From IMG/VR virus record IMGVR_UViG_2703719347_000005, positions 1 through 26,614 of that record: DNA of 26,614 bases; one strand, given 5' to 3'. The DNA is from a virus (taxonomy: Duplodnaviria > Heunggongvirae > Uroviricota > Caudoviricetes). Shown in pieces: positions 1-18,042 of this stretch (within the stretch, counting starts at the first letter, position 1; every line of letters begins with the position of its first letter). The notes under the pieces were generated by a model. The model had not been told where the DNA came from, made no database searches, and saw nothing but the letters and a program-made list of their open reading frames with translations. Position numbers and translations under genes: made by a program.

Positions 1-405
1 ATGGATCAGGTCGTTGTTTTTCAAAAGATGTTTGAGCAAGTGAGAAAAGAGCAAAACTTCTCCTGGTTTTATTCAGAATTAAAACATCACCGTATTGCAC
101 ATTACATTTATTATCTGGCTACGGATAACATCAGAATTATTACTCACGATGATACGGTTTTGTTATTAAGAGGAACCAGGAACCTGTTAAAAGTTAGTAC
201 GACCAAGAACCCTGCTAAAATAAAAGAGGCCGCATTGCTTCATATTTGCGGAAAATCTACATTTCGGGAATACTGTTCAACACTGGCAGGCGCGGGCGTT
301 TTCCGGTGGGTTACTGATGTTAATCATAACAAACGCAGTTACTACGCCATTGATAATACGCTTTTATATATTGAAGATGTAGAAAATAATAAACCATTAA
401 TCTAG
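1..405 (+). CDS. ycgX: Hypothetical 134-aa protein, YcgX-like (DUF1398-type) chromosomal flank gene
   Basis: Complete 405-nt ORF starting at window position 1 in AT-rich DNA. Its length, and its ~700-bp spacing from a 107-aa ORF and an icd 3' fragment, match the ycgX-iraM-icdC arrangement I recall for E. coli K-12. Identification is from memory, not a search. Confidence 0.45.
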   Translation: MDQVVVFQKMFEQVRKEQNFSWFYSELKHHRIAHYIYYLATDNIRIITHDDTVLLLRGTRNLLKVSTTKNPAKIKEAALLHICGKSTFREYCSTLAGAGVFRWVTDVNHNKRSYYAIDNTLLYIEDVENNKPLI

Positions 406-611
406 CTAAAGTTGGATACTTAAGAAATGCTTCATAATTCAGTAAGGCATTAGCATAATGGAAATAAAAGTGCAGAGACTATCTCTATGGATGATTAATA
501 CTGTCTTTTTATTGTCACCCATAAATAATCACCAGACTAATACTATCAACTTGATATTTGAAATGTGATCACTTGACTTTTGATACGTTATTTTATAACG
601 GTTAACATATT

Positions 612-662
612 TATAAAAACAACGGCCGTGCCACACGTCCGTTTCAATACTTAACGCACATG
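612..662 (-). repeat. Copy 1 of a ~50-bp hairpin-containing element; near-duplicate of the icd terminator region at 1478-1527
   Basis: Direct repeat of 1478-1527 at roughly 45 of 52 positions. Contains imperfect hairpin AACGGCCGTG/CACGTCCGTT followed on the minus strand by a T-rich run (revcomp of ttataaaaac). Confidence 0.5.
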
Positions 663-1019
663 TATTTTGGTTTAGTCATCATCCGGTTATATGTATTTTA
701 GCCAGGAACAGGTTAAATCATTCCTATATAACTCAAAAATTGAAACCTTATTCTCATGTCATGCTTATATTCATTATTATCGTTATATAAAAAGGCAACC
801 ATAATGTTTAGCAAATTGGCACAAAGTAGCATAAAGGCTATGTTTTAATTACAGGATGTTCAGTCATTTGAATGTATAACATTATAGCTAAACAAATCTA
901 AAACGAAGTCAATAATTTATTGCTTTCACAAAATCTCATTTTGTTTAACATCCATTGAGATTCCTTGCTTTAAATTTTATTTTATATAAGCCATCATTTT
1001 AATTAATTTATTTTTTTGA

Positions 1020-1029
1020 GGGGGGGGGG
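1020..1029. repeat. G10 homopolymeric tract upstream of the iraM-like ORF
   Basis: Ten consecutive G, preceded by T7 and followed immediately by TAATAT (1030-1035); ~80 bp upstream of the ATG at 1107. Confidence 0.9.
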
Positions 1030-1106
1030 TAATATACTCATATGCAAAATCAAGAAATAAACATCCTAATGAACCATATTAAATACCGTGGGATAAGACA
1101 TAACAA

Positions 1107-1430
1107 ATGAAGTGGATAGTAATTGACACGGTAATTCAACCTACATGTGGTATATCTTTTTCAGCCATATGGGGTAATATGAAAATGATCATCTGGTATC
1201 AATCTACTATATTTCTCCCTCCTGGCAGTATATTTACACCGGTTAAGTCTGGTATTATCCTTAAGGATAAAGAATATCCTATTACTATTTATCACATCGC
1301 ACCATTCAACAAGGATTTATGGAGTTTACTCAAAAGCAGTCAAGAGTGTCCTCCAGGAGAAAGCAAAATAACAAATAAATGTTTACATAATAGTTGCATT
1401 ATAAAAATATGCCCATATGGGCTCAAGTAA
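1107..1430 (+). CDS. iraM: Anti-adaptor protein IraM-like (107 aa)
   Basis: 107-aa ORF in AT-rich DNA ~100 bp from the icd fragment. Size and position match iraM (ycgW) next to icdC in E. coli K-12, and the N-terminus ([12 protein letters not shown]...) agrees with my recollection of IraM. Unverified by search. Confidence 0.55.
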
Positions 1431-1475
1431 TGGGCTTCATATAAATATGCTCGATATGCTATTAATAATATCCAC

Positions 1476-1527
1476 ATAAATAAAACAACGGGCGTGTTAT
1501 ACGCCCGTTTCAATATTTAACACATGG
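1476..1527 (-). terminator. Intrinsic terminator downstream of the icd 3' end (copy 2 of the repeated element)
   Basis: Perfect hairpin AACGGGCGT-gttat-ACGCCCGTT (1487-1509) followed on the minus strand by a GTTTTATTT run; lies just 3' of the icd stop codon (1533-1535). Confidence 0.6.
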
Positions 1528-1532
1528 AGAGA

Positions 1533-1692
1533 TTACATGTTTTCGATGATCGCTTCACCAAACTCTGAACATTTCAGCAGCTTAGCGCCTTCCATCAGAC
1601 GTTCGAAGTCATAAGTTACGGTCTTGGCATTGATTGCGCCTTCCATACCTTTAACAATCAGGTCAGCCGCTTCAGTCCAACCCATATGGCGC
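1533..1692 (-). pseudogene. icd: 3'-terminal fragment of the isocitrate dehydrogenase gene (icdC-like), prophage attachment-site duplication
   Basis: Minus-strand translation reads ...[53 protein letters not shown], matching the Icd C-terminus. Homology to icd stops abruptly near 1692, with an in-frame stop just upstream. Confidence 0.85.
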
Positions 1693-1995
1693 AGCAATAT
1701 CTACGCCATAAATTCTTAAGAGACTGATTTTATTATTTATTTAACCAATGCATCGAATTTTTATTGCCTTAAACTACATTGTTTAACTTGTTGATTTAGA
1801 TAATTTTAAGCTTCGTTTTGGGGAATAAATTATCGCCTTTGACCCAAAACCTATCGGCCATTACAACGTGGCGCCAGGGACTAAAGCTTTGCTCCTGAGC
1901 TAACGCGACGAGCAGTTGTACCTCGACCCGGTTCACTGGGTTACGCGCCAGGGTGGTGGGACAAACCGCCATTGATTAATGCGAAGTACTGATAA

Positions 1996-2029
1996 TATAA
2001 AAAATAAAAACCGGGATAGAGTATCCCGG
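1996..2029 (-). terminator. Rho-independent terminator of the 147-aa cargo ORF
   Basis: Hairpin CCGGGATA-gag-TATCCCGG (2011-2029), followed on the minus strand by T-tract TTTTTATTTTTT, 8 bp after the stop at 2037-2039. Confidence 0.6.
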
Positions 2030-2036
2030 CTCAAAG

Positions 2037-2480
2037 TTAGTGCACCGTAAGCTTTGATGGATTATCAGAGATGTCGAATGAAAACTCATCCCCATCTTTA
2101 TTGAAGCTGAAAGAATCAACATTATTTGTCTTAACGGACACTAAATCACCTAAAGGCCCATATACGCAAGTTGCCGTTCCACCGTTAGTAAACAACACTT
2201 CCTTGGTCACACCGGATACATTGGTAATTGTATTTACAGAAACCACGTTTGCTAAATTTTTTGGATAAGCATATTTGATTGACGAATAGTTGATGGTGAG
2301 CACGGTTCCACTATTGCTAATGGCAGCTCGATGGCCCCCATTCATCTCAGCCACCATACTCCCGTCTGGATAATAAGTCACTTTATGCCCATTTTGTTCA
2401 ATAACTTTTTTCCCGTCGGAATACTCAGTTACTGTATTAATACCCAACTGAAAAACTTTCGGTTGTTCATTATCTGCCAT
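2037..2480 (-). CDS. Hypothetical protein (147 aa), prophage cargo near the attachment site
   Basis: Uninterrupted ORF with its own terminator. No signal peptide or recognisable motif; Gly/Asn/Thr/Val-rich, beta-rich appearance. Confidence 0.5.
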   Translation of the reverse strand: MADNEQPKVFQLGINTVTEYSDGKKVIEQNGHKVTYYPDGSMVAEMNGGHRAAISNSGTVLTINYSSIKYAYPKNLANVVSVNTITNVSGVTKEVLFTNGGTATCVYGPLGDLVSVKTNNVDSFSFNKDGDEFSFDISDNPSKLTVH

Positions 2481-2666
2481 TTAATTCCCCTTTTTTTCTC
2501 CTGAAGAAACCCCATCAACCTTTACTTACTTTGTTAATATACACAAATATTTTTATAAATCCGCAGCCTAGATCAAATAAATGCTCATTGTTTTCAGCTG
2601 AGCCCTATCGAACTAATACAGAAATGAACTAAACGAATAAAATTTTTCTATTCTAGAAAATTGATA

Positions 2667-3932
2667 CTACTTAACCTGTAACAGGTCGGAGTATCTTGTA
2701 GTATAGCAAGGTGAAAGCATTTCCCGCTTCATCTGCCAGGCCGTTTGGATCCCCTGCCCTGCAAAATACAGCGTTCCCCTTCCGTCTTTCGCATTGAGAT
2801 GGTCGAGTACTTCCATCAGTTTCTCGCTATTCCGCCGTGGCACGTTATCATCAAACAAGTTTAGCTGGGCCACCCCCTGACTGTAGAAATCCCCCAGCAT
2901 CACTCCGGCTTTCTGGTAGCGATACCCGTCTCGCCAGATTGCATCGAGACATTCCGTCGCCGCTGTGATTATGTCCCGACTGTCCTGGGTCGGGGTCAAT
3001 AGTTTCACTGATGCACTATTGCCGTAGTACGGCTCATTCAGAGCAAATGGGCTGGTTTTGACGAATGCAGAGATAAAGCGGCAGTACTGATGCTCACCAC
3101 GGAGTTTCTCCGCGGCACGGGATGCGTATAAGCATATCGCCTGGCGCATCTCTTCGTAGGTGGAAATCCGCTGCCCAAAGCTGCGACTACAGACAATCTC
3201 CTGCTTTACCGGCGCGAACTCCTCAAGACCGAGACATGGCTCTCCGCGTAGCTCCCGCACGGTTCGCTCCAGTACCACATTAAAATGCTTCCGGATAAAA
3301 CGGATATCGGTATCCGCCAGTTGCAGTACAGTTTTAATCCCCATGGCCTCCAGTTTTTTACTGATGCGGCGCCCGACGCCCCAGACCTCATCCACCGGAA
3401 GCAAAGCCATCAACTTCCTCTGTCTTTCCAGGTTCGACAGATCCACCACGCCTCCGGTCTGCCGCTGCCACTGTTTCGCGGCGTGATTGGCCAGCTTCGC
3501 CAGGGTTTTAGTCTGGGCTATGCCGACGCCGACCGTTAGGTGTGTCCTGCGCAGAACCGTCTCGCGAATTTCCCTGCCAAAGTCGGTAAGGTCGCGACAA
3601 TTCCGAACTCCTGTCAGGTCGCAAAATGCCTCATCAATACTGTAAATTTCGCAGCGTGGAGAGAGTTCCTCCAGCGTTGTCATCACTCGGTTGGACATAT
3701 CGGCATAAAGCTCATAGTTGCTGCTAAACGCGATAATACCGTGCCGGCGAAACACGTCCTTTTGCTTGAAATAAGGCTCACCCATTTTGACGAAGGGCTT
3801 CGCTTCTGGCGAGCGGGCGATCACACAGCCGTCGTTGTTTGACAGAACGACCACCGGACGCCCTTTCAGGTCAGGACGAAATACGGTCTCGCACGATGCA
3901 TAAAATGAATTCACATCACAAAGCGCAAACAT
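2667..3932 (-). CDS. umuC: Translesion DNA polymerase V catalytic subunit UmuC (Y-family polymerase)
   Basis: Starts MFALCDVNSFYASCE with the SIDEAFCDLTG catalytic motif, ~421 aa. ATG is at 3930-3932, one nt after the umuD stop. The ORF-track 5' extension to 3992 is rejected. Confidence 0.9.
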   Translation of the reverse strand: MFALCDVNSFYASCETVFRPDLKGRPVVVLSNNDGCVIARSPEAKPFVKMGEPYFKQKDVFRRHGIIAFSSNYELYADMSNRVMTTLEELSPRCEIYSIDEAFCDLTGVRNCRDLTDFGREIRETVLRRTHLTVGVGIAQTKTLAKLANHAAKQWQRQTGGVVDLSNLERQRKLMALLPVDEVWGVGRRISKKLEAMGIKTVLQLADTDIRFIRKHFNVVLERTVRELRGEPCLGLEEFAPVKQEIVCSRSFGQRISTYEEMRQAICLYASRAAEKLRGEHQYCRFISAFVKTSPFALNEPYYGNSASVKLLTPTQDSRDIITAATECLDAIWRDGYRYQKAGVMLGDFYSQGVAQLNLFDDNVPRRNSEKLMEVLDHLNAKDGRGTLYFAGQGIQTAWQMKREMLSPCYTTRYSDLLQVK

Positions 3933-3933
3933 C

Positions 3934-4353
3934 TTAGCCAGCTGATTTAATGATGTACGTAACCACCCCGAACACGTCGAGAGTGTCCTCACTACCGACG
4001 ACTATTGGCGAATATGCAGGGTTCATTGGGTTAAGCTGAACCCGCGGATGCAGTTGCAGCTTCTTAACGGTGAATTCCCCATCCACAGCAGCAATAACGA
4101 TATCGCCATGAACTGCTGTTCTTGAGCTATCCACGACCAGAAGATCACCTTCCCCTATGCCTGCGTCTTTCATGCTGTCGCCGGCGGCTTTGACAAAATA
4201 CGTCGCACTTGGGTGGTTAACGAGCAACTCGTTCAGATCAATACGTTGCTCAACATAATCCTGCGCTGGACTAGGAAAGCCGCACTGCACAAGGTCACTG
4301 TACAACGGGAGCAGCATGATCTGGCGTAACTCAACGGGCGTGTAGAACTGCAT
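3934..4353 (-). CDS. umuD: UmuD, LexA-like self-cleaving accessory subunit of polymerase V
   Basis: 139 aa from ATG 4351-4353 ([13 protein letters not shown]...). Conserved Cys-Gly cleavage site (LVQCGFPSP), Ser (GDSMKD) and Lys (TVKKLQL) present. Confidence 0.9.
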
Positions 4354-4372
4354 AATAAACTCGCTCACAAAA

Positions 4373-4392
4373 TACTGTTTTTATATACAGTA
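4373..4392. promoter_or_regulatory. LexA (SOS) box upstream of umuD
   Basis: TACTGTTTTTATATACAGTA: canonical CTGT-N8-ACAG palindrome, 20 bp upstream of the umuD start codon. Confidence 0.8.
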
Positions 4393-4567
4393 GTTTTATT
4401 CGCTAATCTAATCAATAGAGGTTTTAACTATCAATCAGGAACACAGAGGGGGGGGAAACCAGTCACCTTTGAGCCCCTGATATTGGTTTCACTTAGTGAT
4501 TATGTTGTCTATATGCCAGCTTTGAACTATCTTTTCTCAAAACCTGCTACTGCAAAATGGATATAAG

Positions 4568-4693
4568 ATGTCACAGACGGACTTGCTGATTGTTGTTTTT
4601 ACGCTGGGCATTTTAGCCTTTGGCTATTCCATATGGTTCATTTCGAACAGAATACTCTGCTCAATATTTCATAGACTTACAAAGAATATATGA
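4568..4693 (+). CDS. Small hydrophobic ORF (41 aa; MSQTDLLIVVFTLGILAFGYSIWFISNRILCSIFHRLTKNI), putative small membrane protein
   Basis: ATG-initiated ORF below the ORF-track cutoff with one predicted transmembrane helix. Divergent from umuD and on the same strand as the terminator at 4900-4934. Weak RBS. Confidence 0.25.
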   Translation: MSQTDLLIVVFTLGILAFGYSIWFISNRILCSIFHRLTKNI

Positions 4694-4816
4694 ATTGGGA
4701 TGGTATAGACCAAAATTCATGGTCCTTGCTCCTCGACGTCGGAAGGTACTTACAGATCATCTTCGCTCTTAACCTATCACATCGGCACCTACTCCATGAT
4801 GTAACAGCTCAGACCA

Positions 4817-4934
4817 GAAATATCTGGAAGCTTTAGGCATCTTCTTGGAAGATAGACGAGCGCAAAGACGCACACAGCAATGATGTTATGTAGTATTTTC
4901 CCCTTGAGTGTGCCTGCTCAAGGGGATTTTTTAT
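4817..4934 (+). repeat. Direct repeat copy 1 (~118 bp), homologous to 7965-8079, ending in an intrinsic terminator
   Basis: Shared GAAATATCTGGAA, a 22-bp identical core GCGCAAAGACGCACACAGCAAT (4860-4881 and 8008-8029), and a terminator hairpin with conserved loop. Confidence 0.6.
4900..4934 (+). terminator. Rho-independent terminator (plus strand) overlapping the 3' end of the invertase gene
   Basis: CCCCTTGAG-tgtgcctg-CTCAAGGGG followed by ATTTTTTAT. The minus-strand version has no U-tract, so it is not the invertase terminator. Confidence 0.6.
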
Positions 4935-5487
4935 CGCCGCATTGTACCGGCAAATTTTTGTAAATAGTCTTCACATCTACGCCTATCACATCTGCGATCT
5001 GTTGCCGAGTAGCGCCGTTCTCCAGCATTCTGCGGCACCGCTCCACCACTTCTTCAGTCATTACCCGGCGGCGGCCGCCGACTCTCCCCTGCTCCCTCGC
5101 TGCGGCTAACCCGGCTCGGGTACGCTCCACTATCAGCTCGCGCTCCATTTCTGCCAGGGCGCTCATGACGTGGAAGAAGAATCGCCCTGCTGGCGTCGAA
5201 GTGTCGATCGAGTCGGTAAGGCTGCGGAAATTCACCCCACGCGCCTGCAACTCTGACACGAGCGTAATCAGATCGCGCACGCTGCGGCCCAGCCGATCCA
5301 GTTTCCAGACCACCAGCACATCACCCGGGCGGAGCCGTCGCAGCGCTCGCTTCAAACCTGGCCGCCGGGCATTCTTCCCGCTGGCCATATCCTCGAAAAC
5401 CAGCTCACATTCTGCGCGGATCAGCGCGTTTTTCTGTAAATCGAGGTTTTGATCCCCGGTTGATACCCTCGCATAGCCAATCAGCAC
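4918..5487 (-). CDS. Serine DNA invertase, Gin/Hin/Pin/Cin family
   Basis: MLIGYARVSTGDQNLDLQ...VVWKLDRLGRS...FRSLTDSIDTSTPAGRFFFHVMSALAEMERELIVERT closely matches Gin/Pin over the catalytic domain. GTG start at 5485-5487 with SD AAGGAG 7 nt upstream. C-terminal ~45 aa diverge from what I recall of Gin/Pin. Confidence 0.9.
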   Translation of the reverse strand: MLIGYARVSTGDQNLDLQKNALIRAECELVFEDMASGKNARRPGLKRALRRLRPGDVLVVWKLDRLGRSVRDLITLVSELQARGVNFRSLTDSIDTSTPAGRFFFHVMSALAEMERELIVERTRAGLAAAREQGRVGGRRRVMTEEVVERCRRMLENGATRQQIADVIGVDVKTIYKNLPVQCGDKKSP

Positions 5488-5510
5488 GATCTAACTCCTT
5501 GAAATAGCTG

Positions 5511-5539
5511 ATTGTAAAAAGCCGCGGCCATTCGCTCAA
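5511..5539 (-). promoter_or_regulatory. Putative sigma70 promoter of the invertase gene, -35 overlapping crossover site L
   Basis: On the minus strand: -35 TTGAGC (5539-5534), 17-bp spacer, -10 TACAAT (5516-5511). The -35 hexamer lies inside the left half of the 26-bp site. Confidence 0.3.
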
Positions 5540-5556
5540 ACCCTCGTTTGGGCGAA
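5531..5556. other. gix/hix-like 26-bp recombination site L
   Basis: TTCGCTCAAACC-CT-CGTTTGGGCGAA: two 12-bp half-sites (TTC....AAACC) around a 2-bp core, as in gix/hix/cix. Exact reverse complement occurs at 11080-11105. Confidence 0.65.
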
Positions 5557-5923
5557 GCCTCTTTTTGGAGCAAAAAACATGGCCGAACTTAACCCGCCAC
5601 TGGGCACGACGACGCCGGAAATATTCATGGACAACGTTAAGCGCGCTGACGAGCTGGTTAACGGTCCGGCCGGAACGGTTGACGACCGCGGCGGTGAACC
5701 ACTCGATACCTGGCGCCAGATGATGGCGAAAAACGATGAGGTCAGGCAGAACCTGATCCCGCTCAGTAAGCAATACCAGACGCTGGCAGCGGCGCAGGCG
5801 GATATCGCGAATATTCCGGTGGGGTCGACCACGTATTACCGTAGCCCGGATGACAACGCGTTAGCTGTAGAAGTGATCAATAACGCCGGTACGCTGCAGC
5901 CTACCGGGCGGAAAATGCCATCT
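5531..5923. repeat. Left arm of ~390-bp inverted repeat (site + RBS + first ~115 codons of fibre A)
   Basis: First 48 bp are 100% identical to revcomp of 11058-11105; the next ~345 nt are roughly 85-90% identical by eye to the fibre B 5' end. Confidence 0.85.
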
Positions 5924-7918
5924 TATTCTTCGCTACGCGGGGCGAACATTCTGTTTGATGCTCTGAATGAATATTCAGCAAATGATCCTAAATTCGGTGC
6001 GTGGGACTGGTATCGCGGAGCAGTGATCACCTTCAGCACTACTGATGCCAATATTTCGTTACCGACTCCAGTGGCACAGTATTCCGGCGTATGGTCTGCA
6101 GATAAATATTATGACCTTGCCCGCCTGCCTGTAAGGGTTGGTGATAAGTTAACCTTTTCCGTGCTGGCGTGGTTCCAGGATGCCGGTGCTATGTTCCATA
6201 TTTTCTGGATGTCCACCGCTGGCGCTGTTATTTCGTCTAAATCACAGCTTGCTCTGGCCGCAGGTATAAATACGCCGGTTATCACAGATGTCATTCCATC
6301 CGGCGCATCCTACGTCAGGATCCGGGTTGAAAATACTACGGCAGGGATATTTAAGGTCGGTGCTTATGCTGCTGCGTTGGGGGCTATTCAGCCTGATTTT
6401 GTTCGCGCCACGCCGGATAAAACTTATCTGTCAGCCGTCATATCATCCGGTATTTCGGGGTTAACATCACGCGTCGATGCGCTCCAGGGAGCTATCTCTG
6501 TTGGTTATGCTTATGCAGCTGCCTGGCAAGTCGGGAAATTTATCAACCCAACTACAGGGGCCATCACTGATAACTCTGCGCTGAACTGCGCAATCATTCC
6601 GCATTCCGACGGGGATGGCTGGCTGGTGACAGCCCTTGTGACAGGATCGGCGACTGCTCTGGCCGTGTACATGAACAGCGCCGGGATGGTATTGGGTGTT
6701 GAAGGGCGGGGAACGGCAACCCCGCAGCAGTATACTAATTATCGTCTTAACGTTCCTGCCGGGACAACACAGATCGGTATAACGGGTCGTAATTCTGCGG
6801 AAATTGCTGTTAAAAAACTTGCTGTCGTTGAGACGGCCAAAGTACTGGCATCGATCGATTCTCTGGATGTCAGGGTACAAACAATAGAGGACTCTCTTGT
6901 TTATGATTTTATTAAACACGACGTCACGATTACCTCAGGAGCATATATAAACCGTGCTGATGGCAGTGTGGTGGCAAATGCTGCATTTGACTGTGCAATT
7001 TTTAATTACACAGCAGGAGACCGCTGGAAAGTCACAGCGAGGGTTAACGGCAGTGGAGTTTCGCTCGCGGTGTATATGAACAGTGCCGGGACGGTTATCG
7101 GCACCGAAGGGAACGGTACTACAGAATCGGTGGACTACACCGATTACGAGCTAACACCTCCTTCCGGCACCGCCAAAATCGGGATCACCACCCGTATAGC
7201 CGTCCCCATTATTGCCAAAAAATATGTAGTCGTTCCCGGTGGTAGCACGGTCAGTCCGTGGTCTGGAAAAGTCATCGATGTGATGGGTGACAGCAACGTT
7301 GCTTATAACAAATGGCAACCTCTTGTCGCGGCAGAACTGGGCTGCACTTTTCTGAATCACGGGGTCGGTGGTTCGAAAATAGCCAAACCGGATAGCTCCT
7401 CAACGCAAATCAGCATGTGCGACGATGTGCGAATCAATGCTCTGGATACATCGGCGGCGGCGTGGATTTGCGGTCCGTGGGCAACAAACGACTGGGCGCA
7501 AAATATTCCGATTGGAAGTATCACCGACTCAGTGAATACAACCGTTTACGGCGCGCTGAACATCATCGCTCAGAAACTGCGGGCGCGGGCCCCAACAAAA
7601 CCTATCCTGTGGGCCACGCCGTTCAATGGGGACTATGATTCTCCACGTTCAGCGGCATGGGTTGACGGTGAAACAAATGGCTATGGGCGGGTTTCTGACT
7701 ATGCAGCGGCCATACGCGCCGTGGCGTTGCGATATGGATTCCCCCTAATAGACCTTAACGCTGACTGTGGCTGGACAAAATTCAATAGCACTAGTTTTTT
7801 ATTAACCGAGGGGGATACAAATCCGTCCCGCATCCACCTCAATGCGGACGCGGGGCCTGTGCGTATTTCCTCACTGATAACCGATCGGCTTACTGCCCTA
7901 CAGAAACTGGTGGGCTAG
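5579..7918 (+). CDS. Alternative tail fibre A (779 aa): shared N-terminal anchor, three repeated ~100-aa modules, C-terminal GDSL/SGNH-like esterase domain
   Basis: N-terminus MAELNPPLGTTTPEIF... shared with fibre B for ~115 aa. C-terminal region carries MGDSNVA, HGVGGSK, WATNDW and a late His (SRIH), reading like SGNH hydrolase blocks. Currently antiparallel to the tail operon. Confidence 0.7.
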   Translation: MAELNPPLGTTTPEIFMDNVKRADELVNGPAGTVDDRGGEPLDTWRQMMAKNDEVRQNLIPLSKQYQTLAAAQADIANIPVGSTTYYRSPDDNALAVEVINNAGTLQPTGRKMPSYSSLRGANILFDALNEYSANDPKFGAWDWYRGAVITFSTTDANISLPTPVAQYSGVWSADKYYDLARLPVRVGDKLTFSVLAWFQDAGAMFHIFWMSTAGAVISSKSQLALAAGINTPVITDVIPSGASYVRIRVENTTAGIFKVGAYAAALGAIQPDFVRATPDKTYLSAVISSGISGLTSRVDALQGAISVGYAYAAAWQVGKFINPTTGAITDNSALNCAIIPHSDGDGWLVTALVTGSATALAVYMNSAGMVLGVEGRGTATPQQYTNYRLNVPAGTTQIGITGRNSAEIAVKKLAVVETAKVLASIDSLDVRVQTIEDSLVYDFIKHDVTITSGAYINRADGSVVANAAFDCAIFNYTAGDRWKVTARVNGSGVSLAVYMNSAGTVIGTEGNGTTESVDYTDYELTPPSGTAKIGITTRIAVPIIAKKYVVVPGGSTVSPWSGKVIDVMGDSNVAYNKWQPLVAAELGCTFLNHGVGGSKIAKPDSSSTQISMCDDVRINALDTSAAAWICGPWATNDWAQNIPIGSITDSVNTTVYGALNIIAQKLRARAPTKPILWATPFNGDYDSPRSAAWVDGETNGYGRVSDYAAAIRAVALRYGFPLIDLNADCGWTKFNSTSFLLTEGDTNPSRIHLNADAGPVRISSLITDRLTALQKLVG

Positions 7919-7964
7919 TTAACAGTGCTTATCGCGTAGTAGTGTTTCTAAAATGCTGTAATAA

Positions 7965-8079
7965 GAAATATCTGGAAATGTTTTGAATTATCCAGGAGTA
8001 TATCAACGCGCAAAGACGCACACAGCAATAATGTCATTCATCGCTTTTCCCCCGGCGTGCCTCCGGGGGGATTTTTTAG
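7965..8079 (+). repeat. Direct repeat copy 2 (homolog of 4817-4934) downstream of fibre A
   Basis: See copy 1. Stem sequence differs from copy 1 with compensatory changes (CCCCTTGAG/CTCAAGGGG versus CCCCCGG/CCGGGGG) while the loop (GTGCCT) is conserved. Confidence 0.6.
8049..8079 (+). terminator. Rho-independent terminator downstream of fibre A
   Basis: CCCCCGG-cgtgcct-CCGGGGGG followed by ATTTTTTAG on the plus strand. Confidence 0.6.
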
Positions 8080-8173
8080 TCCTTTATGACGTCGTCTTGT
8101 CCCGTCCTCAGGGAAGCTATAGTGGTCTTATTTCACGTGGTAACTGAAACTGAATACAGTACGAGTCAGCTTA

Positions 8174-8890
8174 TTACGCGATTGATAAAATCCCTTCATA
8201 GCTCTGAGTGACGAGGTCAACCATATCCATTTTTTCAGCCTGAGAGAGTATTCCGCCCGCCCACACCCCTGTCATTGCAATATCCACAGCGCCTAAAAAA
8301 TCTGACGTGATATAGGAGTAGCCAGCATAAATCGACTTATTCGGAACAGGGATTGCGCGGGCGGTAACAGCGACCTGTTCAGTCGATAACAGCTCACTGT
8401 TCGTCATTTTATGAAGCTGAACCATAGAGTTATTCACATCGAGGAAAACCAGATGGAATTTACTGGTGTCCAGTGGAGTCGCGAGGGTGGCGGTTGCTGT
8501 CCCGCTTGACCGCCCCACAATCCCCCTGATTTGAGGAATGGCCGGTTCAAAAACAAACGTATCCCCCTGCGGTTGTACAGCAGAGCCGAGATAGTTACCC
8601 ATGCCCAGCGCTCTGGTAGTGCTTTTAGGCCGGAGTAACACCATCATGGTTTTAACCGGGTTATCCGTGACTTTCAGATCATAACCCCCCGCACCAACAC
8701 CACCCGTAAACCAGTACGTGTTGATGACAGGTGCCCCCACTATGGTTGGCTCTTCCCCAAAAATAGCCCCAAAGTTCTGGCTGCCAAATGTGGCAATGCT
8801 CGCGATAGACGGCTGCGGATAACTCGAACCAATAATACAGTCATCATCCCAGACGGCATCAACATTAATAGATAATCCCTGATTAGACAT
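8174..8890 (-). CDS. Hypothetical protein (238 aa) co-transcribed downstream of fibre B; possible fibre accessory or assembly protein
   Basis: Start ATG 8888-8890 (MSNQGLSINVD...), 7 nt after the fibre B stop, with GAGG SD overlapping that stop. The ORF-track 5' extension to 8989 overlaps fibre B and is rejected. No family recognised. Confidence 0.5.
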   Translation of the reverse strand: MSNQGLSINVDAVWDDDCIIGSSYPQPSIASIATFGSQNFGAIFGEEPTIVGAPVINTYWFTGGVGAGGYDLKVTDNPVKTMMVLLRPKSTTRALGMGNYLGSAVQPQGDTFVFEPAIPQIRGIVGRSSGTATATLATPLDTSKFHLVFLDVNNSMVQLHKMTNSELLSTEQVAVTARAIPVPNKSIYAGYSYITSDFLGAVDIAMTGVWAGGILSQAEKMDMVDLVTQSYEGILSIA

Positions 8891-8897
8891 AAGTACC

Positions 8898-11057
8898 TCA
8901 CAACGTGATTTCAAACATGACGCAATAGTTATCCATACGGATAACCTCGCTATTAAGGGTAAAACTGATAATGTCGCCCTGGCTGTCACGCAGACAACCG
9001 CGCGGCCCGGTCAGGCGACCCGGTGACTGGCCGGTGGTGCCGCCGTGAAAGGCATACTGAAGAATGGCCCCGGCAGGGATATCCGCTGCCGTTGAGACAG
9101 TCACCGCGTCATAACGGATATTGAGGCTGGTCAGCGGGATAATCGCACGTGTGTCAGGGTGCAGTAGCCGGAAACCATAATTACCCGGATCAGAAACAAT
9201 GCTGGTATCAAAGCTCAGCCGACCCACCGGATTCAGCCACACCGTAGCGGCGCGGCCCTGGCGTTGATGACTAACTGGCATCAGTGGTTTTGCCGCTTTG
9301 CCGTCAACCAGCGCCCGCTTTTCCATCACGGAAATATAAAGCCCCTGAATATAGGAACTTCTGGCGGTGAGGTGTGCGCCATCCGTGTAATCGTGAATGT
9401 ACATCGGGTTCGTGAGATAGACATTTTCGCGTGTCTGCGCCAGCTCCAGCAGCGCCATCGGAATGGTGGGATAGGCTGTGTTCGGCGTCCGGTTTATCCA
9501 GCTGCTGAACTGATAAACAAAAATCGGCACATGGACTTCTTCGCCGCACACAGCTGAGGCGTGGGCATCGATCCGCTGTTGCATGGTGTCGAAAATAGCC
9601 TGATAGTCTGCTTTGGTGGTGCCTTTCGTCTGGTCTGCTTCGCCCTGCATCCAGTACATCGCCACAGGCCGGTAGGTTTTCCCGAGCTCCTGAGCGCGGG
9701 CGTAACCATAACTGATATCATCGAAAACTCGCTGAATGTACTTTCCGGGATACGCCGCCAGCACATCAATGGGTTGACCGCCCTCCGCCGGAACAGAACC
9801 CAGAATGATCAGATCATCCGGGTTAAAGCCATAGTTCTCGGCAATCATCAGTTCGTACCAGCCGCGAATGCTGGCCCCCATTGGGGTTTCCCATGCCTGG
9901 CCGTTATCGGTGTTTTTATACGTCTCGACGTAGGGAACCAGCTGAGCATGGTTTTCTGCCGAAGTGCCGGAGCCATCCTGCGCCCGTGCCCCACCGATAA
10001 AACGCAATGCGGTATACAGCGCGGCTATCGTAATCAGGGCCTGAGTATTCACGCCAGCGGCAAGCGATTGTCCGTAACCGATTTTATGGGCAATATCCGG
10101 CAGGCGTGAGTAAATGGACTGATTAAAATAGCGCAGAAATTCAGGGGAAATAATCGCTTTAACTTCCAGAGTTTCGGCTTTCAGCGATTTTACCTCTCCA
10201 TGATTCGCTTCAATTTTCCCCGCAGCAAATGCCCCGTTTTTTTTGATACCCACAGCCGGACGATTTAACGTATCACGCCACGCCATAACGAAATCGCGGA
10301 ATGTCGCAGTAGAAATGCTGGCGTTGGCTGGTAACCCTAAGATACTGGCAATCGTAAGATTGTTGATCTCAGCCTTCCCTGATTTCAGTACCCCTTTTTT
10401 ATTAATGGCAAAACAAAGCCGTTTAAGGGTGTCATAAACTGAAACAGCGTTACCGTCAGCCACTAATGATAAAGCAGAATTCCCGATATTCAGACGTGAT
10501 GACGAGATGATCGACGAAATAAATTCATCCGCTGAGAGCTTTTTTAATTCTGCTTTATTCGCCTTAATCCACCCGGCAAGCAACCGGCCCGCCTCATCCA
10601 GCCCTACCGAATAATTTTTTCGTTCATCCATAAAGGCAAGAGACATACCCGCTGGCGCATTCTGGCTGAACGTTGCTCTGATCAAATCAGTCATGATATT
10701 GACCAGCTCCTGAGATGGCATTTTCCGCCCGGTAGGTTGCAGCGTCCCGCCGTTATTCATGTACTCGTCCGCCAGCGCCCAGACGTCCTGGCTGCGAACA
10801 TAGGTCGTGGAGCCAACGGGGATATTCGCGATATCTGCCTGCGCTGCCGCCTCATTCATATACTGCTTGCTGAGTGGGATCAGGTTCTGCCTGACCTCAT
10901 CGTTTTTCGCCATCATCTGGCGCCAGGTATCGAGCGGTTCACCTGCGCGGTCGTTAATCGTTCCGGCCGGACCGTTCACCAGTTCGTCAGCGCGCTTGAC
11001 GTTATCCAGGAATATTTCAGGCGTCGTCGTTCCCAAAGGCGGGTTAAGTTCGGCCAT
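8898..11057 (-). CDS. Alternative tail fibre B (719 aa): shared N-terminal anchor, SASA-like acetylesterase domain, extra C-terminal domain
   Basis: N-terminal ~115 aa shared with fibre A. Residues ~325-585 carry YGQSLAAG, WMQGEAD and DGAHL, consistent with SASA/DUF303-type SGNH esterases. Colinear with the tail operon, so this is the presumably expressed fibre. Confidence 0.7.
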   Translation of the reverse strand: MAELNPPLGTTTPEIFLDNVKRADELVNGPAGTINDRAGEPLDTWRQMMAKNDEVRQNLIPLSKQYMNEAAAQADIANIPVGSTTYVRSQDVWALADEYMNNGGTLQPTGRKMPSQELVNIMTDLIRATFSQNAPAGMSLAFMDERKNYSVGLDEAGRLLAGWIKANKAELKKLSADEFISSIISSSRLNIGNSALSLVADGNAVSVYDTLKRLCFAINKKGVLKSGKAEINNLTIASILGLPANASISTATFRDFVMAWRDTLNRPAVGIKKNGAFAAGKIEANHGEVKSLKAETLEVKAIISPEFLRYFNQSIYSRLPDIAHKIGYGQSLAAGVNTQALITIAALYTALRFIGGARAQDGSGTSAENHAQLVPYVETYKNTDNGQAWETPMGASIRGWYELMIAENYGFNPDDLIILGSVPAEGGQPIDVLAAYPGKYIQRVFDDISYGYARAQELGKTYRPVAMYWMQGEADQTKGTTKADYQAIFDTMQQRIDAHASAVCGEEVHVPIFVYQFSSWINRTPNTAYPTIPMALLELAQTRENVYLTNPMYIHDYTDGAHLTARSSYIQGLYISVMEKRALVDGKAAKPLMPVSHQRQGRAATVWLNPVGRLSFDTSIVSDPGNYGFRLLHPDTRAIIPLTSLNIRYDAVTVSTAADIPAGAILQYAFHGGTTGQSPGRLTGPRGCLRDSQGDIISFTLNSEVIRMDNYCVMFEITL

Positions 11058-11105
11058 GTTTTTTGCTCCAAAAAGAGGCTTCGCCCAAACGAGGGTTTGA
11101 GCGAA
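10713..11105. repeat. Right arm of ~390-bp inverted repeat (fibre B 5' end + RBS + site R)
   Basis: Reverse complement matches 5531-5923; outermost 48 bp are identical. Confidence 0.85.
11080..11105. other. gix/hix-like 26-bp recombination site R (inverted relative to site L)
   Basis: TTCGCCCAAACG-AG-GGTTTGAGCGAA on the plus strand, the exact reverse complement of site L. Confidence 0.65.
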
Positions 11106-11133: not shown

Positions 11134-14100
11134 TTAAGCAGCGTCGCCGGGGTATGTGGCGTCGTCGTACTGGTAGAACGATTCGAGGTATTCTTTTGCG
11201 GTGACCTGGCAGGTTCCGTCAGACTGCGGGGCGATCTCCTCTACAATGGCGTCGTAGACGTGGCGCGTTGAGCCGCAGAACACCAGGCGGATCGGCTCGA
11301 TGGTTGCCGACGACAGGTCAACCCGCATGGGATCATCAAACTCGCTCAGGTGCGGGACTGACAGCTGAAAATCACCCACCCGGCTCGCCACCATCAGCCC
11401 GGATGCAGAGCCATCCTGATAGCGGATTAGCGCGCGGGGATTTTCGAAAGACCAGTCCAGCGGCTCCGTAACGGTGAACGTTGTCACGCCACCAGCCGTT
11501 GTCATCGCCTCCACCAGACAGGAAATTGTGTTGTTACCCGGAATATCATCCGTGAGCACAATGCGATCGCCCGTGTTGTAGCACAGCGCGTCCAGCTCGG
11601 TAGTGGTCTGGAACGTCACCCGCTGCTGCAGGTATTTCATCAGGCGACGCATGCCGATCTGGTAGGCGTGATCCTGATTCAGTACCCCATCGAGTTTGTA
11701 GTTCTCGATTTTCACCGGCGTGGGATTATCAGGCGTCCGGCATTTAACGGTCTCCTCCGCCCAGGTAGTCCCGTTGATGTATGTCACGTCGACGCCATCA
11801 AAATCATCGTCGGACGGTACGGTAAATCCGCTCTGCAGCTCCTCCACCATCTCATGCGGAGTGATCACGCCAGTCCAGGGCTTAATCCCCTCACGGTTGA
11901 CCGTCGCCAGGCCATCACTCAGCAGAAAACGTGACTTCCCGGCATTGGCTATCTTCTGCAGCATTTCCAGCGCTGAGATACTGTCGCCCGTGGCGAAATC
12001 AAAATTTTCGCCCCGTGGCGTCCAGTACGCGGATTCCAGCGCGTTGATGGTGTCGACGTCCATCTCCAGCCCCAGCGAGTTCCCGACATGCAGCAGCGCC
12101 CCCGAAATGGTTCTGGCGGTTCCTGAGTCGTAGGCCCGCGTGGCCACAACGTTTACGCGGCGGTCCGACTGCGCCGCCAGCTTCCCACCCGTCTCAACGG
12201 TCACCGCCATCAGCGACACGCCGGGATAGGATGAAGGGCGCGTCAGCAGTCGCCCGCGCAGTGCCTGCCAGTACATCGAATCCCTGGCGTTGTTTGAGCC
12301 CTGCTCATTGCGCCGACGGCAGCGAACCTCTACCAGTCCCGGAGAACTGAGGGTGATCCGCTCAGTGAAACCTAACCCGTTGACGTTTTTCAGCGCATAC
12401 TCGCCCTGGTGACTCACCCACCCCGATCCGGAACCGTAGACGCGATACTGTATCTCCCACTCAACGTGGCGGATCCGTTTTTTGCCCTTACTGTCAAAGC
12501 CGCAAATACCGTTCGGGAAAGAGAAATTCACCTCGAACATATCGACGGTCTCATTTTCAGGGCAAACCAGGAACGGCCCCAGCCAGCTCAGCGTGTCGTT
12601 AAGACCAGTGGCCTCATAGTCGATCATCGTCCGGGCGGTGAATCCCGGCCATGACTCATCAACGGCACCGTTAACCAGGCGCGCCACCGTCGCCGTTGTG
12701 CCGTCGGTCGAGACAATGCGGTACTCATTCCCGCGGTGAGCAAGTGAAAGCCGTTGCACCCCCTCCGGCATGCCGGAAAAGGCCGTTCCCGTGGCGCTGT
12801 TATAGGCAAGCGTCACATTCGCCGTTACCGCCGGGCTGCCGCCGGTTGATGCCGTGCCGGAGGTGTAAACCGGGGCATCACCGAAAACAGCTGCAGGCAG
12901 CGAAGAGGACGTGATCTCCCCACCCGCGAACGGACTGGCCGACTCGGTTATCAGTACGGTGCCGCCGTTGTCCTGCGCAACCAGGCCGGCGCCAGTGAGT
13001 CCCTCGGTGATGGCCGCCAGCAGTCCCGACATCGAGACGTAGTTAGCCACCAGCGACACCGGGTAGGTAACTCCCTGCCAGGTGATCGTGAACGTGCTGG
13101 AGCTGGTCGAAAAATCGTAGGTGGTCGGGGCCGCACTGGCCTGGACTTTTGCCACACTCCCCCCGGTGCCGGGCACTGCAGCCTGACCGGGGGTATATGA
13201 CGCGATAAACAGATCGTAATCGACAGAGTTAAACCCCAGCGTCACCGGCATTCCAACCACCGGCGCGATCTCCGTCAGCAGCGGGCTTGCGATAACGCTG
13301 TATCCGGCCGCCGTGGTGATCTGGTAGTTCGCCTGGGCTTTCAGTTCGACCACGGCGCCAGCGACCCAGCTGGGCGGCAGTGAGTTATCGTTCTCGTCAT
13401 TATCGTCATCATCATCCGTATCCAGCCCGGTAAACGTTACGCTCGAACCGGATACGGTCATGCTGTCTGCGATAATATCGTCGGCATCCGGCGACGTCTG
13501 GGCCATATCCAGCCCGGTACCGGATGATGTCCCTCCGACCTCAGTACTATTGACCCAGTTTTCACTGCGCTCATCGCCGGAAACGTCCGCGCCTGGTGGA
13601 AAATAGGTGATGTTGAAACCCGGCAGCGTTGAAGCTGGCGTACTGCCTACCCTGATATCGCCAGTGGTATAAATCAGTTCACCGACACCGAGACACAGCA
13701 GCATCTGGACGCGCATTTTCGTAGGATCGGCGGCATCGAACCGGGTAACGGGCTGGACCACATAATCCGGGTAGATACGCACCCGGCCAAACACCTCACG
13801 AATGGCATCACCGAGTTTTGCGGTGTTGGCCCGCGCCGGGTTCAGGTCGAGACTCCGCCCTGTGGATGAGGTATAGCCGCCCGTATCGATGCGGCTCATC
13901 AAAACAAGCGAATAGGCTGCAGCGGCAACGGAGATACCGACGCCGATCCACGCGATTGTGGCGGCCTCCAGCCCGAAGGGGACCGGATAAAGCCGTACAT
14001 CACTATCAGGGCGGATCACACAGGTAGCCCACTCGCCTGGCGGAATTGACTGACCCTCAACCTCAACGGTCAGCGGTGGGACATCCCGATCGGTATAGTT

Positions 14101-14202
14101 TTCAACATTTTCCACCAGCCAGGTGCGGATACTGGTTACACCATGCTCATGCGTTTCGAGTGGTTCACCGGGAAGCCGGGACGGGTAGAAACGAATGGTC
14201 AT
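11134..14202 (-). CDS. Tail tip / central fibre host-specificity protein (1022 aa), possibly a fused I/J-like protein
   Basis: Large protein directly downstream of the NlpC/P60 gene with a 4-nt ATGA overlap. N-terminal ~100 aa include a hydrophobic stretch (AATIAWIGVGISVAAAAYSLVLM), reminiscent of lambda gpI. Confidence 0.55.
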   Translation of the reverse strand: MTIRFYPSRLPGEPLETHEHGVTSIRTWLVENVENYTDRDVPPLTVEVEGQSIPPGEWATCVIRPDSDVRLYPVPFGLEAATIAWIGVGISVAAAAYSLVLMSRIDTGGYTSSTGRSLDLNPARANTAKLGDAIREVFGRVRIYPDYVVQPVTRFDAADPTKMRVQMLLCLGVGELIYTTGDIRVGSTPASTLPGFNITYFPPGADVSGDERSENWVNSTEVGGTSSGTGLDMAQTSPDADDIIADSMTVSGSSVTFTGLDTDDDDDNDENDNSLPPSWVAGAVVELKAQANYQITTAAGYSVIASPLLTEIAPVVGMPVTLGFNSVDYDLFIASYTPGQAAVPGTGGSVAKVQASAAPTTYDFSTSSSTFTITWQGVTYPVSLVANYVSMSGLLAAITEGLTGAGLVAQDNGGTVLITESASPFAGGEITSSSLPAAVFGDAPVYTSGTASTGGSPAVTANVTLAYNSATGTAFSGMPEGVQRLSLAHRGNEYRIVSTDGTTATVARLVNGAVDESWPGFTARTMIDYEATGLNDTLSWLGPFLVCPENETVDMFEVNFSFPNGICGFDSKGKKRIRHVEWEIQYRVYGSGSGWVSHQGEYALKNVNGLGFTERITLSSPGLVEVRCRRRNEQGSNNARDSMYWQALRGRLLTRPSSYPGVSLMAVTVETGGKLAAQSDRRVNVVATRAYDSGTARTISGALLHVGNSLGLEMDVDTINALESAYWTPRGENFDFATGDSISALEMLQKIANAGKSRFLLSDGLATVNREGIKPWTGVITPHEMVEELQSGFTVPSDDDFDGVDVTYINGTTWAEETVKCRTPDNPTPVKIENYKLDGVLNQDHAYQIGMRRLMKYLQQRVTFQTTTELDALCYNTGDRIVLTDDIPGNNTISCLVEAMTTAGGVTTFTVTEPLDWSFENPRALIRYQDGSASGLMVASRVGDFQLSVPHLSEFDDPMRVDLSSATIEPIRLVFCGSTRHVYDAIVEEIAPQSDGTCQVTAKEYLESFYQYDDATYPGDAA

Positions 14203-14579
14203 CGCCAGAACTCCACTTTGACAAATCGCCGCTTAAACCGCGGCAACGGCAGAAAGGTGACGTTCGTTCCCGGGTTGCATTCCGCCACATGCAGCAGGCC
14301 ACCGATACTGACGACAATCCCCACATGGGTGACGGTCGACCCGGAATAACAGGCCACCCCGGCCCCTTCGCAGGGTTCGCAGCGCTCAAGGGTAAGCATC
14401 ATCCGGCGCGCTTCCCGGTCGAGTCCGCCGTCGTCTTTGGTGACCCCGGCAAAATCAGGCCAGAGAGGCATGCACAAATCGCGGCGTATCTCGTTCACAA
14501 TGCCGAAGCAGTCGAGCTGCGGATATACGCGCCCGCCCTTCAGCCAGGTGACTGAACGGTATTTATCAGGAATAAACAT
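14199..14579 (-). CDS. NlpC/P60-family tail protein (lambda gpK C-terminal-domain-like)
   Basis: 126 aa with DCFGIV (Cys) and HVGIV (His) motifs typical of NlpC/P60 peptidases; sits in the K position of a lambdoid tail module. Confidence 0.55.
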   Translation of the reverse strand: MFIPDKYRSVTWLKGGRVYPQLDCFGIVNEIRRDLCMPLWPDFAGVTKDDGGLDREARRMMLTLERCEPCEGAGVACYSGSTVTHVGIVVSIGGLLHVAECNPGTNVTFLPLPRFKRRFVKVEFWR

Positions 14580-14589
14580 GATGGATTCC

Positions 14590-15072
14590 TTAGCTGATAT
14601 AACGCAGTCCGGGGAAGACAGGGAGCGTGTAGCGGTAACGTGGCCAGGCGGTATCGAGGATATTCATGTAGCCCGCAGTGATCTGCACCTCTGTCGCCGT
14701 CCAGTAACCAGACTTGATTTTCAGCGTATAAGGCACTGCCGCAGGCACTGCTAAATCCGTGGAGATATAGCTCCGGTATGTCAGCGATGCAGGCAATCTG
14801 TTAGCCAGGGCATTGCGGATCGCCGTTGACACAACACCATCGATATTGCACAGGGCAAATTTCAAATCTTGCGTGCCGTCCGCATTACGCGCCGGCAGCG
14901 CAATGTCTATCGCACAGGCGGTAAACGTTACGGTATCGCCGTTCTCCGTCGTTGCCGTAATATCCTCGTAGCCCTGACACAGGTAGTGAATATCTGAGCC
15001 AACGGTGATCTGCAGCGTTTCAATGATCACCTCCGGGCCGCTGCTGGCGTAGAGGCGTTTAATCTGCGTCAT
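14590..15072 (-). CDS. Minor tail protein (160 aa)
   Basis: Assigned from position between tape measure and NlpC/P60 genes; no motif recognised. Confidence 0.4.
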   Translation of the reverse strand: MTQIKRLYASSGPEVIIETLQITVGSDIHYLCQGYEDITATTENGDTVTFTACAIDIALPARNADGTQDLKFALCNIDGVVSTAIRNALANRLPASLTYRSYISTDLAVPAAVPYTLKIKSGYWTATEVQITAGYMNILDTAWPRYRYTLPVFPGLRYIS

Positions 15073-17973: not shown

Positions 17974-17991
17974 TTAATTTCTCCAGGCAAC

Positions 17992-18014
17992 AAAAAAACC
18001 CCGCCGAAGCGAGG
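17992..18014 (-). terminator. Putative intrinsic terminator downstream of the lipoprotein gene, just upstream of the tape measure RBS
   Basis: Minus-strand RNA CCUCGC-UUCG-GCGGGG (UUCG tetraloop, one U-G wobble) followed by UUUUUUUG. Confidence 0.5.
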
Positions 18015-18042
18015 TTTTGGTTTGTTTATATATTGGTTAAAA

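Follow-up and report, generated by a model that had tools for sequence, protein, structure and literature searches.

Among the described systems closest to the locus studied here are the e14 element of E. coli K-12 and Escherichia phage 21 (OL657228.1), both of which use icd as their integration site. The K-12 annotation gives the end of e14 as stfP-tfaP / tfaE-stfE, followed by pinE, mcrA, icdC, and iraM. This agrees with the layout given in a first-pass annotation of the present locus, which had placed mcrA, pin, and an invertible fibre segment at the icdC-proximal end of e14. The cargo next to attP is mcrA in e14 and a set of sit transporter genes in phage 21, and it is umuDC in the phage described here; such differing cargo is ordinary prophage mosaicism. 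Among Klebsiella phages, the genome announcement of KPP5665-2 (PMC5658490) mentions that some E. coli strains carry related prophages, and UmuCD genes on Klebsiella prophages were noted earlier (PMC8617712). Literature searches found no paper that treats icd, e14, phage 21, and the integrase together, while broader searches did return papers; likewise, no paper on whole-gene fibre inversion in Klebsiella siphoviruses was found.

The window, that is, the whole stretch of DNA that was analysed, comprises 26,614 nucleotides of the virus record IMGVR_UViG_2703719347_000005. Ten of 5,426 complete E. coli genomes match positions 1-5598 of the window at 100%. Strain 98227 (NZ_CP173466.1), which is 100% identical over the same interval and whose annotation is collinear with the window, was used for reading gene names and the parts of the prophage beyond the window. 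On the evidence set out below, it can be held with high confidence that window 1533-1697 is the attR of an approximately 40-kb lambdoid siphovirus prophage of Klebsiella lineage that is integrated in icd and is not an e14 derivative.

The left flank of the junction is chromosomal. It carries ycgX (1-405, plus strand, DUF1398), ymgL (approximately 458-568), ymgK (approximately 804-848), and iraM (1107-1430, plus strand), as annotated in strain 98227 and, for the last three, in K-12 as well. This flank was matched in all 5,426 complete E. coli genomes. The first-pass annotation had recognized a ycgX-iraM-icdC arrangement, and the genes and their order are indeed those of K-12, including ymgK and ymgL. 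Next to iraM lies icdC (1533-1697, minus strand), a pseudogene that represents the displaced native 3' end of E. coli icd and that RefSeq labels a partial isocitrate dehydrogenase in strain 98227. A terminator-like stem-loop directly 3' of its stop codon (1487-1509, minus strand) is the native icd terminator, displaced together with the fragment.

The fragment consists of 54 codons and a stop codon (165 nt). Its identity is 164/165 nt with K-12 icdC, 152/165 nt with the 3' end of K-12 icd that e14 carries, and 138/165 nt with the icd end that the phage brings in strain 98227. The only mismatch to K-12 icdC is position 1697 (TTG vs. ATG), which is also the first base of the phage arm. Alignment to K-12 icd and iraM had been proposed as a check on the locus. 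It matched the fragment to icdC and found IraM and YcgX to be 100% identical to the K-12 proteins. The first-pass annotation was thus right about the identity of the icd fragment and wrong about its length, which it had given as 52 codons at 1533-1692. In uninterrupted E. coli icd, the alignment is continuous from ycgX through icd as far as window 1702. The position of the junction is the same as that of e14 to the nucleotide, which bears out the proposal that the prophage occupies the e14 attachment site. The combined match of icd fragment, flank, and gene order cannot be due to chance.

The att sites share a 14-bp common core, TGCTGCGCCATATG, at 1683-1696 (minus strand), which lies in icd and would be the region of strand exchange. 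This core is the only block common to attL of strain 98227, attR of the window, and the reconstructed attB, and the arms diverge on both sides of it. attL reads ...GAGATGA-TGCTGCGCCATATG-CAGTGG..., and attR reads ...GTAGATAT-TGCTGCGCCATATG-GGTTGG.... The junctions coincide in an alignment of attR, attL, K-12 icdC, the K-12 icd/e14 junction, and phage 21 attP. The phage arm of attR extends over 1697-1831 (minus strand), and its sequence, GACGTAGATAT, is unchanged in the copies from K. pneumoniae and Raoultella. The arm-type site consensus YYTTCCCCAAAA was taken from the phage 21 record, where it is annotated next to int. Strain 98227 has three tandem sites of this type (positions 16838-16873 of locus L002) between the icd stop codon and int, a count that none of 100 shuffled sequences equalled. 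The arm within the window holds one match, the predicted site TATTCCCCAAAA at 1816-1827, which taken alone does not rise above chance (at least two matches in 14/100 shuffles). The attP of the prophage is of the phage 21 style.

At the far end of the prophage, strain 98227 carries an excisionase, a site-specific integrase, and an intact icd, followed by rluE and nudJ. The first-pass annotation had predicted an integrase and an intact icd at this end, and both are present approximately 40 kb from the icd fragment in ten near-identical genomes. The intact icd beside int is chimeric, and its product is identical to that of K-12 at 411/416 aa. Beyond the portal and terminase genes, strain 98227 carries lysis genes, replication genes (RusA, Dam), and an immunity region that includes a YmfL-family protein. 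The far end lies outside the window and was read from ten genomes with 99.9-100% identity to the window in the parts held in common. Since these are relatives, none of which has the IS66 insertion of the window, the window's own genome could differ at its far end. The window does not derive from any of these ten, which differ from it in the IS66 insertion and in the orientation of the fibre segment; the closest relative was GCA_949766055.1 (99.98% over 12 kb). Several of the ten complete genomes carry other IS elements within the prophage.

These observations suggest the following course of integration. We infer that a tyrosine integrase of the phage 21/e14 family was active here and inserted the prophage into the 3' part of icd, with strand exchange taking place in the 14-bp core. 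The attP brings with it the 54 final codons of icd and a terminator, so that an intact chimeric icd is restored at attL. The native 3' end of E. coli icd is thereby moved approximately 40 kb away, where it persists as the icdC pseudogene beside iraM.

The integrase encoded at the far end in strain 98227 shares 82% identity with phage 21 Int and 61% with e14 IntE, and it matches a group of lambda-like coliphages equally well (82%). Apart from IntE, the proteins that can be compared with e14 are XisE (40%), YmfM (55%), YmfL (28%), and PinE (64.5%). The first-pass annotation had described the element as a larger relative or a replacement of e14. According to the first of these possibilities, the element would be a larger and less decayed relative, and e14 a deletion derivative of such a phage. 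The common att site, these five homologous proteins, and an invertase at the same place relative to attR all fit such a relationship. However, the DNA shared with e14 in blastn is confined to icd, a 436-nt stretch around ymfL/ymfM (74%), and the invertase gene. Gene order and DNA similarity do not extend to an e14 backbone beyond the att/int module, and the element lacks counterparts of the tail, baseplate, lit, ymfD/E, and mcrA genes of e14. Moreover, Int is far closer to phage 21, the virion genes are of Klebsiella siphovirus type, and the inversion sites of the two elements are placed differently with respect to the fibre genes. Kinship with e14 of this kind is therefore scarcely credible. 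The part of the earlier claim that stands is replacement, in the sense of a shared hotspot, whereas a larger relative with almost no common DNA and an integrase nearer to that of phage 21 does not stand. Because Int is nearer to phage 21 and there is little e14 DNA, the element shares an integration family and a site with e14, and no stronger kinship. The element is thus an alternative occupant of the shared icd hotspot and neither a derivative nor a close relative of e14.

The icd site is frequently occupied. An uninterrupted icd-iraM junction (query covered at least 80%) was found in 3,039 of the 5,426 complete E. coli genomes. The junction is therefore interrupted in up to 44% of them, a figure that covers interruptions of any kind and not prophages only. 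Homologues of the integrase were scanned in one genome per GTDB species, and the best 80 of 113 confirmed loci were kept. In 59 of these best 80, icd or an icd 3' fragment of approximately 55 aa lies directly beside int. The genera concerned are Proteus, Providencia, Xenorhabdus, Pectobacterium, Erwinia, Pantoea, Serratia, Klebsiella, and others, all of the Enterobacterales. The presence of a fragment of approximately 55 aa beside int indicates tandem arrays. Since the site is often interrupted and homologous integrases are widely found beside icd, different prophages at icd are the rule. An icd prophage with cargo unlike that of e14 is accordingly expected, and the main value of that finding is negative. 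This particular prophage is rare in E. coli (10/5,426 complete genomes).

From the junction inwards, the window reads icdC, a decayed SRAP gene, a 147-aa ORF, umuC, umuD, the invertase gene, the invertible fibre segment, and gene J. The first-pass annotation had placed umuDC and the 147-aa ORF where e14 has mcrA, and an invertase in the same relative position as that of e14. Both umuDC and the ORF were found at that place, and the invertase belongs to the Pin family. umuC (2667-3932, minus strand) encodes a Y-family DNA polymerase of 421 aa with the Pfam domains IMS, IMS_C, and DUF4113, which is 86% identical to E. coli chromosomal UmuC. umuD (3934-4353, minus strand) encodes an S24 self-cleaving subunit of 139 aa (Pfam Peptidase_S24), which is 74% identical to E. 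coli UmuD and keeps Cys24-Gly25, Ser60, and Lys97. The pair has the make-up of a UmuDC/Pol V operon, namely, an S24 peptidase with a cleavage site and the Ser60/Lys97 dyad, followed by a Y-family polymerase. A predicted LexA box, TACTGTTTTTATATACAGTA, lies at 4373-4392 (plus strand), 20 nt upstream of the umuD start codon. It is perfect and is the sole CTGT-N8-ACAG match in the window. A promoter scan gave a promoter-like site at 4405-4434, with the LexA box just downstream, between this site and the umuD start. These features suggest that the prophage umuDC would be under LexA control and would supply an active extra Pol V. In strain 98227, the host has its own umuDC approximately 18 kb beyond the left end of the window. 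Because the host keeps this chromosomal copy, the lysogen has two Pol V operons. Copying of the prophage umuDC from the nearby chromosomal operon was rejected, as the proteins are only 86% and 74% identical and the 90%-identity cluster is almost entirely from Klebsiella.

The remaining attR-proximal cargo is small. The decayed gene (1832-1986, plus strand) is of the SRAP/YedK-like SOS-response-associated peptidase type and is a RefSeq pseudogene in strain 98227. The 147-aa ORF (2037-2480, minus strand), with a terminator at 2008-2032, encodes an orphan all-beta repeat protein with Tcp10_C/G-box-like hairpin repeats, as judged from repeat-type matches. The ORF had no Pfam match above the cut-off (only Tcp10_C below threshold) and belongs to no PADLOC or PHROG family. 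Its product falls into only three clusters among 5.8 billion proteins. A single-sequence AlphaFold prediction is all-beta with low confidence (mean pLDDT 54.7). Exhaustive HMMER searches gave 33 matches, mostly repeat to repeat with Tcp10_C-repeat proteins, none of which indicates a function. The proposal that this ORF is an analogue of McrA in restriction or defence was rejected as unsupported, also in view of the lack of a PADLOC match. An Rfam scan of the whole window gave no match at gathering scores.

Exact copies of the 147-aa protein are also encoded in K. pneumoniae and Raoultella ornithinolytica. The order umuD, umuC, 147-aa gene, identical attP arm, and icd fragment recurs in K. pneumoniae and Raoultella, and the order of J, fibres, invertase, umuDC, 147-aa gene, and icd fragment is the same in three genera. 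The attR-proximal cargo, which is also found at icd in Klebsiella and Raoultella, belongs to the phage lineage. The site could also be composite, with umuDC and the 147-aa gene forming an independent island beside the prophage or a remnant of a second prophage in tandem. Tandem arrays do exist at icd: several species have an icd fragment of approximately 55 aa beside int, and in locus L092 the icd fragment is followed immediately by a second integrase. The interval between invertase and umuD is also variable, with a retron-type RT at this place in L092 and in Escherichia phage vB_EcoS-733R5. However, the stretch of approximately 40 kb in strain 98227 holds only two icd-like pieces and no second integrase, three genera have the same gene order from J to the icd fragment together with an identical attP arm, and umuDC and SRAP stand together at the end of a deposited Klebsiella prophage genome (ST846-OXA48phi9.2). 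In addition, the int-xis module was found in exactly the ten genomes that have the umuDC end, with at least 99.9% identity (10/5,426 complete E. coli genomes). Because both ends share the same ten genomes, they form one prophage with one attL/attR pair, and a composite origin is highly improbable.

The single prophage also carries a fibre switch. The invertase gene (4918-5487, minus strand) encodes a serine DNA invertase of the Pin/Gin/Hin family of 189 aa (Pfam Resolvase, 1.6e-49, plus HTH_7), which is 64.5% identical to PinE. The adjoining invertible segment comprises 5,575 bp (5531-11105). Relative to strain 98227, it is inverted exactly, at 100% identity, and both flanks are collinear. Inverted hix/gix-like sites of 26 bp, at 5531-5556 and 11080-11105, lie exactly at the two edges of the inverted block. 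Each has the imperfectly palindromic form TTCGCTCAAACC-CT-CGTTTGGGCGAA. The segment is bounded by inverted repeats of 393 bp that match at 85% overall and perfectly in their outer 68 bp. It contains tail-fibre gene A (5579-7918, plus strand; 779 aa, SGNH/GDSL esterase, PHROG tail fibre), a gene for a 238-aa protein (8174-8890, minus strand), and tail-fibre gene B (8898-11057, minus strand; 719 aa, PHROG tail fibre). In the ten complete genomes, all of which have the segment inverted at 100% identity, the 779-aa SGNH/GDSL fibre gene stands behind gene J. In the window and in GCA_949766055.1, the 719-aa fibre gene and the 238-aa gene stand there. Both orientations of the fibre segment therefore occur in natural isolates.

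The inversion site stops 22 nt short of the ATG in both fibre genes, and each gene has its own ribosome-binding region. The two fibre proteins are identical at 100 of 115 N-terminal residues, so that each has its own copy of the anchor. Since the crossover site lies upstream of the start codon, whole genes are swapped and not C-terminal parts, as the first-pass annotation had anticipated in calling the fibre cassettes whole genes. In e14, the inversion site AAACCTTGGTTTGGGAGAA resembles that of the window and lies 285 nt inside stfP. Phage KPP5665-2, which was obtained by induction, has other fibre genes framed by the identical pair of sites, and the fibre switch is therefore a feature of the phage group. 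Its value here is that a whole-gene tail-fibre switch has been caught in both states in natural isolates.

The morphogenesis genes follow at 11134-24731 (minus strand; RefSeq annotation of strain 98227, offset +20000). They include those for the TipJ/J-like protein (11134-14202), the tape measure (15538-17973), and the major capsid (21795-22958), all on the minus strand. Genes for tail assembly, the tail tube, head-tail connectors, and the prohead protease and a 5'-truncated portal gene lie within the same interval and on the same strand. Collinearity with all ten complete genomes ends at 24731, inside the portal gene, where strain 98227 continues from portal to terminase. The remainder of the window (24732-26614) is an IS66-family element (ISEc22-like) that runs off the end of the window. 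It is 99.8% identical to ISEc22 copies elsewhere, and its junction starts with GTAAGCGTC. This insertion is in none of the ten complete genomes. With the portal gene interrupted, the prophage in the window's strain should be unable to make particles.

The head and tail genes of the virion are approximately 94% identical at the nucleotide level to those of the Klebsiella phages KPP5665-2 and KpF5, and 39 of the 47 phage records that match the window are Klebsiella phages. In the clusters formed at 90% identity around Int, UmuC, the invertase, J, the two fibre proteins, and the 238-aa protein, nearly all entries come from the K. pneumoniae complex. In strain 98227, the icd end supplied by the phage agrees at 160/165 nt with the native end that was displaced in a K. 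pneumoniae chromosome (locus L089), and the similarity runs on through the terminator. The flank genes of L089 give exact products that are named K. pneumoniae by their sources. The match of the phage-borne end to the E. coli native end is 138/165 nt only. The icd 3' end carried by the phage is thus of Klebsiella type, and the chimeric Icd of the E. coli lysogen has five C-terminal substitutions (G->Q, T->F, N->A, E->D, and E->A).

Because the attP-borne icd end, the virion genes, and the protein clusters are Klebsiella-like, we infer a transfer from Klebsiella to E. coli. The two grounds for this direction, namely, the resemblance of the icd end borne on attP and the frequencies in databases, are both open to sampling bias. 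The opposite course, in which a phage native to E. coli would have passed into Klebsiella, draws on exact copies of the window proteins on approximately 450-600 contigs each, many from E. coli, and on the fact that phage 21-type integrases are common in coliphages. It is rendered quite improbable by three observations. Only ten of the 5,426 complete E. coli genomes carry the prophage, and their identity of at least 99.9% throughout indicates a single recent acquisition; the icd end borne on attP resembles that of Klebsiella and not that of E. coli, as does its terminator; and Klebsiella accounts for nearly all of the diverse relatives with 90-95% identity. The phage lineage therefore seems to live in Klebsiella and to have entered E. 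coli once, and the element would be a lambdoid mosaic of Klebsiella lineage that was acquired by a single E. coli lineage. As such, it is a clean nucleotide-level case of a Klebsiella-lineage phage resident in E. coli, in which the phage-borne icd end serves as an ancestry marker. The carriers are human clinical isolates, some with ESBL or CRE in the strain name, and they gain a second Pol V operon with a LexA box.

A bolder reading goes further: a complete temperate Klebsiella phage would have passed between genera into a single clinical E. coli lineage, with three phenotypic consequences. In full, this is rather unlikely. The crossing would have been open to the phage because the attB core in icd is conserved across Enterobacterales. 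If this were true, a second SOS-inducible Pol V would raise stress-induced mutagenesis. The lysogen would also have a chimeric isocitrate dehydrogenase with a Klebsiella-type C-terminus (five substitutions). Lastly, an invertible whole-gene switch of the receptor-binding protein would provide two specificities for hosts or surface glycans and may itself have aided the crossing between genera.

The preferred reading, that of a Klebsiella-lineage prophage at the icd hotspot, can be placed among the known systems as follows. With e14 it shares the attB core, the icdC-iraM-ycgX flank, and a Pin-family invertase with an invertible fibre segment that adjoin the attR-proximal cargo. In contrast, e14 is a defective element of 15.2 kb with remnants of another tail/baseplate type, its cargo is mcrA, with lit and ymfD/E at the other end, and its inversion takes place inside the fibre ORF and switches C-terminal parts. 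With phage 21, which is also lambdoid, it shares the attB position in icd, an attP that holds a duplicate icd 3' end (annotated as an ICDH-like pseudogene in the phage 21 record), tandem arm-type sites YYTTCCCCAAAA between the icd end and int, and variable cargo across attP. Phage 21 differs in carrying sitABCD-type transporter genes instead of umuDC and in having an E. coli-like attP-borne icd end, whereas that of the present phage is Klebsiella-like. Phage 21 also belongs to another virion group and is absent among the 47 phage records that match the window. The Gin/Cin/Pin/Hin systems (the G segment of Mu, the C segment of P1, and the P segment of e14) have in common with the present switch a serine invertase with Resolvase and HTH_7 domains, 26-bp inverted sites, and alternative expression of tail fibres. 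The difference is that complete genes are swapped behind J here, each with its own N-terminal anchor. KPP5665-2 (MF695815.1) has the same head/tail module (approximately 94% nt), the same layout of J, fibre, opposed fibre, and invertase, and the identical pair of 26-bp inversion sites; it differs in having another integrase directly after the invertase, other fibre genes, and no umuDC. The Klebsiella phage ST846-OXA48phi9.2 has SRAP and umuDC at the same prophage end, with SRAP intact. Unlike the prophage described here, neither KPP5665-2 nor ST846-OXA48phi9.2 is described in its record as integrated in icd.

The icd gene reconstituted in the lysogen, taken from E. coli strain 98227 (NZ_CP173466.1; locus L002, 15522-16772), is chimeric: the final 54 codons are Klebsiella-type and differ from the displaced E. 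coli end at five amino acids. In several species, an integrase of the prophage's family is flanked not by a complete icd but by a 3' fragment of it, about 55-60 aa long. Such fragment-only loci were found in species-representative genomes of Proteus, Providencia, and Erwinia (L015, L018, L031, L043, and L072) and in L092, a locus of a prophage relative in a 5.3-Mb genome, where the icd fragment is directly followed by a second integrase. The arrangement of these loci suggests that prophages are arrayed in tandem at icd.

The host umuDC of strain 98227 (L001, 654-2341) is located approximately 18 kb to the left of the window start. Because it lies near the prophage-borne copy, these lysogens carry two LexA-type Pol V operons no more than about 24 kb apart. 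A G homopolymer approximately 80 nt upstream of iraM (1020-1029) differs in length between strains: it is G10 in the window and strain 98227, G8 in K-12, and G11 in two other assemblies, while GCA_949766055.1, the assembly closest to the window, reads GGGGGGAGG. These differences could be true length variation or assembly error. A second G run (G8) is present at 4448-4455.

The portal gene is interrupted by an IS66-family, ISEc22-like element (24732-26614), which begins GTAAGCGTC and continues past the window end. This insertion was absent from all ten complete genomes with the same prophage. Other IS elements, namely ISKox3, ISKpn26, IS150, and IS200C, were found inside the prophage in several of them.

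An unannotated stretch of 525 bp (4393-4917) is bounded by the LexA box on one side and the invertase on the other. It contains a 41-aa hydrophobic ORF (4568-4693, + strand; MSQTDLLIVVFTLGILAFGYSIWFISNRILCSIFHRLTKNI), and a terminator-like hairpin is found at 4899-4926 (+ strand). The equivalent interval is occupied by a 140-aa gene in L087, another prophage relative, and by a retron-type reverse transcriptase in L092, as is also annotated in Escherichia phage vB_EcoS-733R5. This interval looks like a variable cargo slot.

The 5.6-kb invertible segment (5531-11105) contains two complete, opposed tail-fibre genes; one encodes a 779-aa product, and the other encodes a 719-aa product and is accompanied by a 238-aa gene. 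The start codon of each fibre gene lies 22 nt downstream of the end of a 26-bp hix-like crossover site; inversion therefore exchanges entire genes at the position behind gene J, which encodes a TipJ/J-like tail protein. Both orientations of the segment were found among near-identical E. coli isolates. Klebsiella phage KPP5665-2 has an identical site pair (L004, 15756-15781 and 22246-22271) around different fibre genes.
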